Origin: a virus
Taxonomy: Duplodnaviria; Heunggongvirae; Uroviricota; Caudoviricetes
Strand: one strand, 5' to 3'
Virus record (IMG/VR): IMGVR_UViG_2700989486_000022
DNA length: 6,117 nucleotides
Each line of letters starts with the position of its first letter. Within the stretch, counting starts at the first letter, position 1. The notes under the pieces are model-generated. The model made no database searches, was not told where the DNA came from, and saw only the letters and a list, made by a program, of their open reading frames with translations. Shown here piece after piece: positions 244 to 5,865 of this stretch. Both the position numbers and the translations under genes were made by a program.

Positions 244-474
244 TTAATGGAGTTTGTTTTGCTGCTGGACGAGATCCTGAAGAGACAGGAGGTCTTCCGC
301 CAGATAGCTGAATACAGCGGCGCAGTAGTCGGCTGAAATAGTGCTGTTGAGTCTGTGCAATGTGTTGGATTGCATGATAAAGGCGATGTGTGCAGCGCGG
401 GTGAGTCTGCGATCGATTTCAGTCTGGATGTGACGACGTGCAGCGTATGCGCGCTGTTGTTTGCGGTTTGCCAT
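244..474 (-). CDS. hypothetical small basic protein (76 aa)
   Basis: ORF-track ORF; ATG at 474-472 with AGAGG about 7 nt upstream; good codon usage (CGC/CGT Arg); basic N-terminus (MANRKQQRAYAARRH); lies downstream of a - strand terminator so appears to be its own unit together with the gene at 1-171. Confidence 0.55.
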   Translation of the reverse strand: MANRKQQRAYAARRHIQTEIDRRLTRAAHIAFIMQSNTLHRLNSTISADYCAAVFSYLAEDLLSLQDLVQQQNKLH

Positions 475-703: not shown

Positions 704-794
704 TCCCGGCACCCGTTTTATGAGGTGCAGCGGAAATGTAACCTGACTGATTGCGGCATGGCAAGCGGTTTTTTTGTGTGTGCATAATGCTCAT

Positions 795-1346
795 TCAGTT
801 TGGAAGCAGCTCGTATAACAGGGCGTCGGCGGCGGTTCGGCGGTTGTAAAGCCACCATGCTGTGCTGTATGCCACCTGTATCCCTGTGATTTTGTATATA
901 TGTCTGCTTATTTCCCTGAATGGCATGCCGTGCCCATCACGCAATTCAGTTACCAGATGAACAATATGATCGTCGTATTTAGCAGCATGATGTATGCCTC
1001 CACACTTCATTGCGCTGTAACCACGATCGCGGAGTATTTTTTGTATGGTGCATTTGCTACATTTCATTTCCCGTGCCATATCCCTCTTACTTTTTCGGTG
1101 GCGGTTGCTGATTATTTCTGCTATTGCCTTTTCATCCAGCCGCTGGCGTTTCCGCCCAATCAGCCCTCGCTTGCGCAAGGTGATAATGCGCTGCCCCGTT
1201 GCATGAAATGAGCGATTAAGTCTGGATGTTATTTCCCTGATGCTGTGTTTCTGGTACATGCTTATCAGCAACGCATCTTCCTGTTTCGTCCATTGTTTAA
1301 CGTGTCTGGGTGCCTGACCGGGGATGCCCATTGGTTTGAGTTTCAT
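795..1346 (-). CDS. putative DNA-binding protein with three helix-turn-helix-like segments (183 aa); function unknown
   Basis: ORF-track ORF; ATG at 1346 with AAGGGAG about 9 nt upstream; three segments with HTH/Myb-like character (KQWTKQEDALLISMYQK..ITSRL; AIAEIISNRHRKSKRDMAREMKCSKCTIQKIL; MPFREISRHIYKITGIQVAYSTAWW); last gene before the terminator. Confidence 0.7.
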   Translation of the reverse strand: MKLKPMGIPGQAPRHVKQWTKQEDALLISMYQKHSIREITSRLNRSFHATGQRIITLRKRGLIGRKRQRLDEKAIAEIISNRHRKSKRDMAREMKCSKCTIQKILRDRGYSAMKCGGIHHAAKYDDHIVHLVTELRDGHGMPFREISRHIYKITGIQVAYSTAWWLYNRRTAADALLYELLPN

Positions 1347-1360
1347 TGTGATTTGCTCCC

Positions 1361-1660
1361 TTACTGGTTAAGGAAAAAATCAAAAACCTTGTCGATGCGT
1401 TGCAGCAACTCTTGTTGCATTGCTTCCGGCGTTTCTGGTTCGCCTAGTGACTCCAGCGGTGCGCAGAAATCCTCGATTTCATGGCGGAGTGTCAGGCGAA
1501 TGGCGAGAGGTGTGGTTCTGGAGTGCTCCAGCTCATCCAGTAGTGCCAACACGGCAGATGGCGAGAGCATTGCGCGAAACGCCAGTAATTTTTGATGCGT
1601 TGCCATTCGTTGCAGGTCAGTTGCCAGTTCGCGTAGTTCCTGGTGGTTGATGGTGCTCAT
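1361..1660 (-). CDS. hypothetical protein (99 aa), acidic, predicted helical
   Basis: ORF-track ORF; start ATG overlaps the stop of the upstream gene (ATGA at 1657-1660); AAGGAA about 11 nt upstream. Confidence 0.65.
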   Translation of the reverse strand: MSTINHQELRELATDLQRMATHQKLLAFRAMLSPSAVLALLDELEHSRTTPLAIRLTLRHEIEDFCAPLESLGEPETPEAMQQELLQRIDKVFDFFLNQ

Positions 1661-2628: not shown

Positions 2629-2742
2629 TTATTCGTCAGAGAAAAAACGCTCAATCTTTTTCACTGAATGAATAATTCGCATAATGCCAATAGCGCAGAT
2701 CACCGAAATAATCAGAATAAGCCACGAAATAAATATACTCAT
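2629..2742 (-). CDS. candidate small hydrophobic (single-pass membrane) peptide, 37 aa: MSIFISWLILIISVICAIGIMRIIHSVKKIERFFSDE
   Basis: Not in the ORF track (too short). Hand-translated: ATG at 2742-2740 overlaps the TGA stop of the 80-aa gene (ATGA), GGGGAA about 6 nt upstream, TAA at 2631-2629. Hydrophobic core followed by a charged tail. Sits in a visibly AT-rich segment. Confidence 0.35.
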   Translation of the reverse strand: MSIFISWLILIISVICAIGIMRIIHSVKKIERFFSDE

Positions 2743-5574: not shown

Positions 5575-5700
5575 AATAGGACTAAATAAGCCCATTTAAG
5601 ACTATGTGTATTAATGTAACTAATTGATATATCAAAGGGAGGCCAGTGTGCTCTGCCTCCTTCATGTCACCTTCGGGTGGCGTTGTTTTATGCGATGTAT
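5575..5700. other. Candidate attachment-site / element-chromosome junction region downstream of int
   Basis: Non-coding; AATAAGCCCATTTAAG (about 5585-5600) resembles the P2 att core as I recall it (..AATAAGCCCGTGTAAGG..); hairpins GGAGGC/GCCTCC (5638-5643/5655-5660) and CACC-TTCG-GGTG (5668-5679) followed by a T-rich tract. The exact core and junction cannot be fixed without the other end of the element. Confidence 0.35.
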
Positions 5701-5865
5701 CTCGCGATTTTTTTTTGTAACTTTTCCATCTTTTGCTTTTCTCTCCGAGCCGCTTTCCATATCTGCAATCGCATAAAAAACTCTGCTGGCGTTCACAAAT
5801 GTGCAGGGGTAAAACGTTTCCTGTAGCACCGTGAGTTATACTTTGTATAACTTAAGGAGGTGCAG

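Follow-up and report, generated by a model that had tools for sequence, protein, structure and literature searches.

In phages P1 and P7, the C4 RNA of the immI region acts by preventing the icd/ant operon from being translated. In Gifsy-1, which carries the isrK-orf45-anrP arrangement, IsrK plays a dual role, as a small RNA and as the leader of a read-through mRNA (PMC4825925). Among proteins, helix-turn-helix (HTH) modules joined by a basic linker are found in the Tc3 transposase and in Pax paired domains, which offer a model for reading an extended DNA site, and three imperfect HTH repeats make up Cbp1, the CRISPR DNA repeat-binding protein of Sulfolobus. We analyzed a 6,117-bp stretch of DNA, hereafter the window, in which a gene encoding a 183-aa protein with three HTH modules lies beside an IsrK/C4 module. 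The window corresponds to the left end of a P2-like E. coli prophage inserted beside chpS, and is 99.4% identical to NZ_AP022298; its integrase, C repressor, Pe/Pc region and cox are 97–100% identical to those of phage P88 (Peduoviridae, Xuanwuvirus). The early operon runs on the minus strand, with cox the first of the genes listed (4104–3679), followed by DUF4761, orf95, DUF4754, a 37-aa ORF, orf136, orf59 and a gene for a MarR-type winged-helix protein. The latter is followed by an Ead/Ea22-like gene (1660–1361) and by the triple-HTH ORF (795–1346, minus strand, stop codon at 795–797), whose product is recorded in RefSeq as a “hypothetical protein” (WP_044860298.1). On the same strand, 3′ of this ORF, we found the IsrK small RNA, the C4 antisense RNA, an ORF resembling P4 epsilon, orf121 and the gpA replication endonuclease gene, which is located beyond the left end of the window. 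An earlier note on this DNA had taken the triple-HTH gene for the last one before a terminator, a placement that this gene order contradicts; the only intrinsic terminator found shortly after the ORF (659–674, plus a U run) is IsrK's own.

The triple-HTH ORF starts 14 nt past the end of the Ead/Ea22-like gene, and is preceded by a Shine-Dalgarno sequence (AAGGGAG, 1356–1362, minus strand) located 9 nt before its ATG and overlapping the stop codon of that upstream gene. A search for a sigma-70-like promoter upstream of the ORF found none, suggesting that the gene is read from the early-operon transcript. The RefSeq name and the fact that every Pfam match falls below threshold would be compatible with a chance ORF or the remnant of a pseudogene, a reading to which we give practically no credence and which is refuted by the conservation data. 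Full-length homologues exist at about 33–97% identity, falling into groups of 96–97%, 45–55% and ∼33%, and conservation over the full length extends down to ∼30% identity across elements of four genera (E. coli, Citrobacter, Salmonella and Klebsiella). Comparison with the 97% identical allele gives a dN/dS of ∼0.27, calculated from only 14 differences, and the good Shine-Dalgarno site and the confident predicted fold point in the same direction. The ORF at 795–1346 is thus a real gene.

The suggestion, made from the sequence alone, that the protein is built from three HTH-like segments is borne out by structure prediction. An AlphaFold2 model built on an alignment of 22 sequences is all-helical (mean pLDDT 80.7) and displays three HTH bundles of three helices each, separated by linkers of lower confidence. 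The first module (residues 21–59; 1170–1286, minus strand) is of Myb/SANT/GcrA-like type, with the motif W19-T-x-x-E-D just before it; the second (residues 72–107; 1026–1133, minus strand) resembles HTH_38 and HTH_32, and is joined to the first via a conserved basic linker, RGLIGRKRQ. The third (residues 126–168; 843–971, minus strand) is preceded by a conserved K-C-G..H..A-K-Y-D-D motif and, in the E. coli clade, its turn contains a 6-residue insertion. The relative placement of the three modules is not predicted (pTM 0.45), as expected if they are not fixed with respect to one another. The protein is strongly basic, with a pI of 10.4 and a net charge of about +21 carried mostly by modules 1 and 2 and their linkers. 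It ends in a tail, RRTAADALLYELLPN (residues 169–183; 798–842, minus strand), which includes a helix predicted at residues 172–180. Given that this tail is the most conserved element of the family and yet has a low pLDDT, it is a candidate protein-contact peptide. A recent internal triplication was considered and rejected, since the alignment between modules 1 and 2 is in register yet weak (hhalign E 1e-3), and that of module 3 is not significant. Within the gene, an exact 12-nt direct repeat, TTATTTCCCTGA (plus strand), is present at 908–919 and 1229–1240, and encodes the R-E-I-(T/S) stretch common to the second helix of modules 1 and 3.

Each module resembles the DNA-binding domains of GcrA, Myb/SANT and Tc3, that of GcrA being the best structural match of a module. 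For the whole protein, a Foldseek search of the PDB placed the bipartite DNA-binding domain of the Tc3 transposase and Cbp1 at the top, followed by Pax paired domains and Mos1/SETMAR, all with weak E-values of 0.02 to 0.5 (1u78, E 0.018; also 1k78, 6pax and 1pdn). Among viral models, Foldseek returned uncharacterized multi-HTH phage proteins of Goslar and BcepSauron, as well as a Vibrio phage “D5 protein” (E 8e-3). The one strong family match is to PHROG 323, “transcriptional regulator, D5-like” (E 1.3e-23, 85 bits), which spans residues 2–162 and covers only positions 80–236 of the 319 in the profile; the Mu-like and Klebsiella homologues match the same profile at E 2e-58 and 5e-38. The PHROG label is an annotation and not a tested function; we class the triple-HTH protein as an uncharacterized member of the PHROG 323 multi-HTH phage proteins, predicted to bind DNA. 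Of the checks proposed in the earlier note, structure prediction gives HTH folds and the profile search gives PHROG 323. The Pfam HTH matches all remain sub-threshold: Myb (PF00249) reaches 15.5 bits over residues 18–34 only (gathering threshold 24.4), HTH_32 26.9 bits (33.7) and HTH_38 24.1 bits (27). Searching the PDB by sequence returned no meaningful match (best E 0.69), an NCBIfam search gave only HTH matches far below threshold, and a search of PADLOC-DB gave no defence match, the sole hit being a chance-level CARF-HTH of 14 bits.

Comparison with the individual systems shows both likeness and difference. As in Myb/SANT domains, each module is modelled as a three-helix bundle in which helices 2 and 3 form the HTH; unlike in c-Myb R1R2R3, the modules are not close mutual repeats, and the regularly spaced tryptophans of Myb are absent. 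As in the Tc3 transposase and Pax paired domains, HTH modules are strung on a basic linker, but the 183-aa protein has three modules instead of two and no catalytic domain, and the structural matches to these proteins are statistically weak. Membership in the Cbp1 family was rejected, the protein scoring 18 bits against a cut-off of 140 for HTH_Cbp1 (NCBIfam NF040595), and Cbp1 being archaeal, with no phage context. An Lrp/AsnC identity was also discarded, as the model has no RAM alpha-beta domain and no strands, and no AsnC_trans_reg match was found. The name “AsnC family protein,” under which NCBI lists many Salmonella members and the Klebsiella homologues, is a mis-annotation, because the RAM domain is missing; RefSeq copies from E. 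coli are named “hypothetical,” “DNA-binding” or “SANT/Myb-like.” No study of the triple-HTH protein came up in literature searches.

We then consider how this family is distributed. That the protein is not among the canonical P2 early proteins, as had been noticed from its layout, is confirmed: no homologue was found among the early proteins of P2 and 186 (Cox/Apl, B, CII, A and others), and a tblastn search of 50,697 phage records matched only three, Shae_phiSM and two Mu-like inserts. An exhaustive HMM search retrieved 2,274 representatives at E ≤ 1e-3, most of which are long proteins with 4–14 tandem HTH repeats and Pfam matches of the Myb, Sigma70_r4 and GcrA types. About two dozen clusters, many of them from Salmonella, consist of co-linear proteins of ∼180 aa with common motifs: LKPMGxPGxxPxH..W(T)xEED at the N terminus, followed by the basic first linker, then KxG..H..(T/A)(K/R)Y.D.DV.LIR.LRD and LTFREI, and YxxRxTAxD..xRELLP at the C terminus. 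A scan of one genome per species with the family alignment yielded no confirmed relatives. Members of the ∼180-residue family are widespread among enterobacterial prophages, namely those of E. coli, Citrobacter, Salmonella and Klebsiella (Enterobacteriaceae), and are inconsistently annotated. The window's own allele is rare: among 5,426 complete E. coli genomes, 11 contain it, and most of these come from swine. Column entropy within the E. coli clade peaks in the three recognition helices (1.33–1.47 bits); the linkers, N-terminal arm and C-terminal helix have the lowest values (0.44–0.74). Homologues at ∼33% identity occur in Klebsiella P2-like prophages, where the gene directly precedes gpA, and in E. 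coli Mu-like prophages, where it lies between gam and gemA/mor; isrK and C4 are absent from both. In the Klebsiella P2-like prophages (loci L029/L043, 6546–6549), the end of the triple-HTH gene and the beginning of gpA share 4 nt, ATGA, in which the stop and start codons overlap; this suggests a translational coupling of the two genes in these elements.

In the P88-type phages, the triple-HTH gene occupies a variable slot, delimited by the stop codon of the Ead/Ea22-like gene (window position 1361) and by ATGCACACACAAAAAAACCGC (at about 784). This slot is empty in vB_EcoM-705R2 and PhiR44_2; it holds a 67-aa ORF and an SPFH-domain gene in P88, an SPFH gene together with a triple-HTH gene in L013, and a triple-HTH gene together with a Dam-like methyltransferase gene in L022 (5329–6348). 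The slot loci also include L039 (3884–4914). Alleles that are only 45–55% identical lie between flanks which, where they can be aligned, are ∼90–98% identical; Citrobacter phage Shae_phiSM, for instance, is 91–96% identical to the window in the flanks and 48% in the triple-HTH gene. The swapped cassette comprises the ORF and ∼14 nt on each side, suggesting that it brings no promoter or operator of its own; an operator-like repeat travelling with the cassette was ruled out, the flanks being too small to accommodate one. P88 has the window's C, Pe/Pc and cox (an immunity region 98–100% identical) and an RNA block 98% identical to that of the window, yet no triple-HTH gene; conversely, at loci L004 and L007 the window's allele is accompanied by immunity regions unrelated to that of the window. 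Given that allele and immunity type assort independently, a link of the gene with the immunity switch was rejected. These comparisons indicate that the triple-HTH gene is an optional and swappable accessory cargo of P2-like and Mu-like prophages, not a core regulator, and they map in P88-type P2-like phages an early-operon cargo slot that is filled by a triple-HTH protein, an SPFH protein, a Dam-like methylase or nothing. This slot is not known to be one of the P2 defence hotspots.

Dam-like methyltransferase genes were also observed at most ∼1 kb from the triple-HTH gene in three lineages (L029, 4476–5429; L027, 4414–5379; and L022, at the position given above). GcrA recognizes methylated DNA, and the combination of a GcrA-like fold with a neighbouring Dam-like gene may be a coincidence, since P2-like phages often have dam upstream of gpA. 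We found no dam gene in the early operon of the window phage.

Downstream of the triple-HTH gene, positions 475–794 had been described as a non-coding region bearing repeated motifs. Rfam searches identify it instead as isrK and C4, both above their gathering thresholds. The Hfq-binding small RNA IsrK (RF01394) is encoded at 654–728 on the minus strand (64.3 bits, gathering threshold 50), and a sigma-70-like promoter (TTGCCA-18-TACATT, 735–764, minus strand), which begins ∼30 nt past the triple-HTH stop codon, is positioned such that the 5′ end of isrK would fall at 728. The C4 antisense RNA (RF01695) is encoded at 531–618 on the same strand (80.5 bits, gathering threshold 45), and its unpaired segments, CUUUGGUUG and GUGGAAA, constitute the antisense elements. 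These are complementary to CAACCAAAGAGG and TTTCCAC, which are found twice on the minus strand. One copy (TTTCCAC ... CAACCAAAG, 680–709) lies inside IsrK, and the other (484–533) lies in the leader of the next ORF, with CAACCAAAGAGG over the ribosome-binding site. The repeats seen on the plus strand of region 475–794, GGTGGAAA and CTTTGGTTG, are the complements of the single-stranded C4 segments. Because the motifs match these segments in the copies within IsrK and at the ribosome-binding site, we consider them to be RNA-RNA pairing elements and not an array of protein sites, an assignment that relies on direct complementarity together with a repeat finder.

The next ORF (244–474, minus strand) encodes a 76-aa protein resembling P4 epsilon (Pfam Derepression, E 1e-4, below gathering), and its orthologue in P88 bears the annotation “derepression protein.” C4 presumably controls this ORF, which would then be an antisense-controlled antirepressor inside a P2-like phage. 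The arrangement is akin to that of P1/P7 immI and Gifsy-1 isrK-orf45-anrP, in that C4 or IsrK is accompanied by complementary sites, one of which covers the downstream ribosome-binding site; it differs in that the downstream ORF is of the P4-epsilon type and not Ant or AnrP, and in that the module is embedded in a P2-type early operon, upstream of gpA. Region 475–794 can thus be re-read as an IsrK/C4 antisense module predicted to control an epsilon-like antirepressor in a P2-type early operon. Alleles of the 76-aa ORF show 72–80% DNA identity (96% in Shae_phiSM) and assort independently of their neighbours. In RefSeq, the IsrK/C4 stretch (L001, 15516–15785) is labelled an “ash family protein” pseudogene, incomplete; it seems that a protein was predicted where there are RNA genes. 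We also observed a 21-nt inverted repeat (761–781 and 648–668, 90% complementary), whose first arm, located immediately before the isrK promoter, is complementary to the IsrK terminator over the 3′ half and U tract of the latter, and could thus pair with it. In a transcript entering from the early operon, folding predicts a long-range helix (MFE −54.5 kcal/mol, z −4.2), a possible antiterminator conformer that would disfavour the IsrK terminator only in read-through transcripts.

Taking these features together, the reading that we favour, with a probability of roughly 0.6, is that the triple-HTH protein is an early-expressed, non-essential multi-HTH DNA binder that acts in trans, as accessory cargo with allele-specific targets. 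The gene is transcribed with the early lytic (Pe) operon of the Xuanwuvirus P88-type prophage and, in this model, its product would be arranged on double-stranded DNA like beads on a string, with the three recognition helices entering successive major-groove segments and the basic linkers running along the backbone or the minor groove. This putative binding mode is drawn by analogy from the Tc3 transposase, Pax paired domains, c-Myb R2R3 and Cbp1. The C-terminal helix could contact a partner or a second copy of the protein, and specificity would be set by the variable recognition helices. As the alleles differ mainly in these helices, allele-specific DNA targets are suggested, although the high divergence could just be the legacy of old mosaic lineages, with no selection for new specificities. 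The cassette leaves no room for an operator and moves independently of both the immunity region and the RNA module, so that a target in trans (in the host, in a competing element or at a distant conserved phage site) is more likely than IsrK/C4 or the immunity switch. The comparison of flanks on which we infer this trans-acting role, regulatory or competitive, covered ∼6 kb on either side of the gene, and a co-varying target could lie elsewhere in the phage genome.

This reading has to be weighed against three others, which in decreasing order of weight are a D5-like coating of DNA, a replication role beside gpA and a local regulation of the RNA module, each of them weakened by the comparative data. 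A protein so basic and rich in HTH modules could bind DNA non-specifically, in the manner of a nucleoid protein, and might take over the host by coating, silencing or remodelling host or rival DNA early in the lytic cycle, largely independently of sequence, like the D5 DNA-binding protein of phage T5. The pI, the “D5-like” label of PHROG 323, the Foldseek match to the Vibrio phage “D5 protein” and the fact that temperate phages of two unrelated types have the gene in their early operons all fit such an activity; we nevertheless regard it as unlikely, given that variation concentrated in the recognition helices agrees better with specific readout than with coating, and that PADLOC yielded no defence matches. 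The P2 B protein assists lagging-strand synthesis, and a comparable helper of gpA, the rolling-circle endonuclease, might for instance bind the origin or recruit a helicase, its C-terminal peptide docking a host replication protein. Such a role would fit the strong conservation of the C-terminal motif, the 4-nt overlap with gpA in Klebsiella and the position of the gene in P2-like phages, where it consistently comes last among the accessory genes, ahead of gpA or of the RNA module located upstream of gpA. P88, 705R2 and PhiR44_2 nonetheless do without the gene while their orf121 or gpA is the same where compared, and in Mu-like prophages, which lack gpA and are replicated by transposition, the gene is located between gam and gemA/mor, making this role improbable.

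The remaining alternative builds on the earlier note, which made the protein a candidate binder of the 475–794 repeats: it would bind these repeats or the isrK promoter and thereby control the IsrK/C4/antirepressor switch. Indeed, isrK and C4 lie downstream of the gene at every Xuanwuvirus-type locus examined from IMG/VR and GenBank, isrK being 60–70 nt past the stop codon at all loci but L022, with alleles ranging from 34 to 97% identity, and the isrK promoter-like site follows the stop codon closely. The repeats, however, are explained as C4 antisense and target elements, and the isrK-C4 block keeps 85–98% DNA identity at all loci, against 45–97% amino acid identity for the alleles. Next to alleles of 100, 54 and 48% identity, and at empty sites, there is no variation over the ∼50 nt that extend from the cassette boundary to the end of the isrK promoter; P88 has a 98% identical block and no triple-HTH gene. 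Moreover, in L022 the Dam-like gene separates the triple-HTH gene from isrK-C4, the Klebsiella P2-like and Mu-like homologues are found without isrK or C4, and 155 phage records contain isrK-C4, for the most part those of Stx lambdoids, N15 and ST64B, compared with three for the protein. Since the slot varies next to a conserved block, alleles assort independently, homologues exist without isrK/C4 and the two distributions are so unequal, these comparisons indicate that the adjacency is positional and not a functional coupling. Binding of the protein to the 475–794 DNA is thus unlikely, and a block that is conserved regardless of the allele, and kept in P88, leaves the proposal improbable.

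A more speculative extension of the favoured reading, to which we give little weight, though marginally more than to local control by repeat binding, is that the gene is an allelic “specificity cassette” aimed at rival elements or the host or, alternatively, a tuner of read-through into the IsrK/C4/epsilon module. The conserved gene ends, scaffold and linkers would allow recombination to swap sets of recognition helices between P2-like and Mu-like phages, each allele being directed at a different target, such as a heteroimmune prophage, a P4-type satellite or the host. If so, it would define a new class of factors for competition between elements or for host reprogramming. More generally, if the alleles do differ in DNA specificity, they would form a natural set of modular three-HTH binders, possibly serving phage-phage competition; on the present data, the importance of the finding is modest.

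Two further features of the window were observed. The integrase end of the prophage (5575–5865) abuts the chpS-chpB toxin-antitoxin locus, which places the attachment site just upstream of chpS, and more than 5,000 E. coli genomes match the window in this right-hand part only. In the early operon, the 37-aa ORF (2629–2742, minus strand) encodes a hydrophobic peptide (MSIFISWLILIISVICAIGIM...) and overlaps the DUF4754 stop codon; in P88, it is annotated as a membrane protein.
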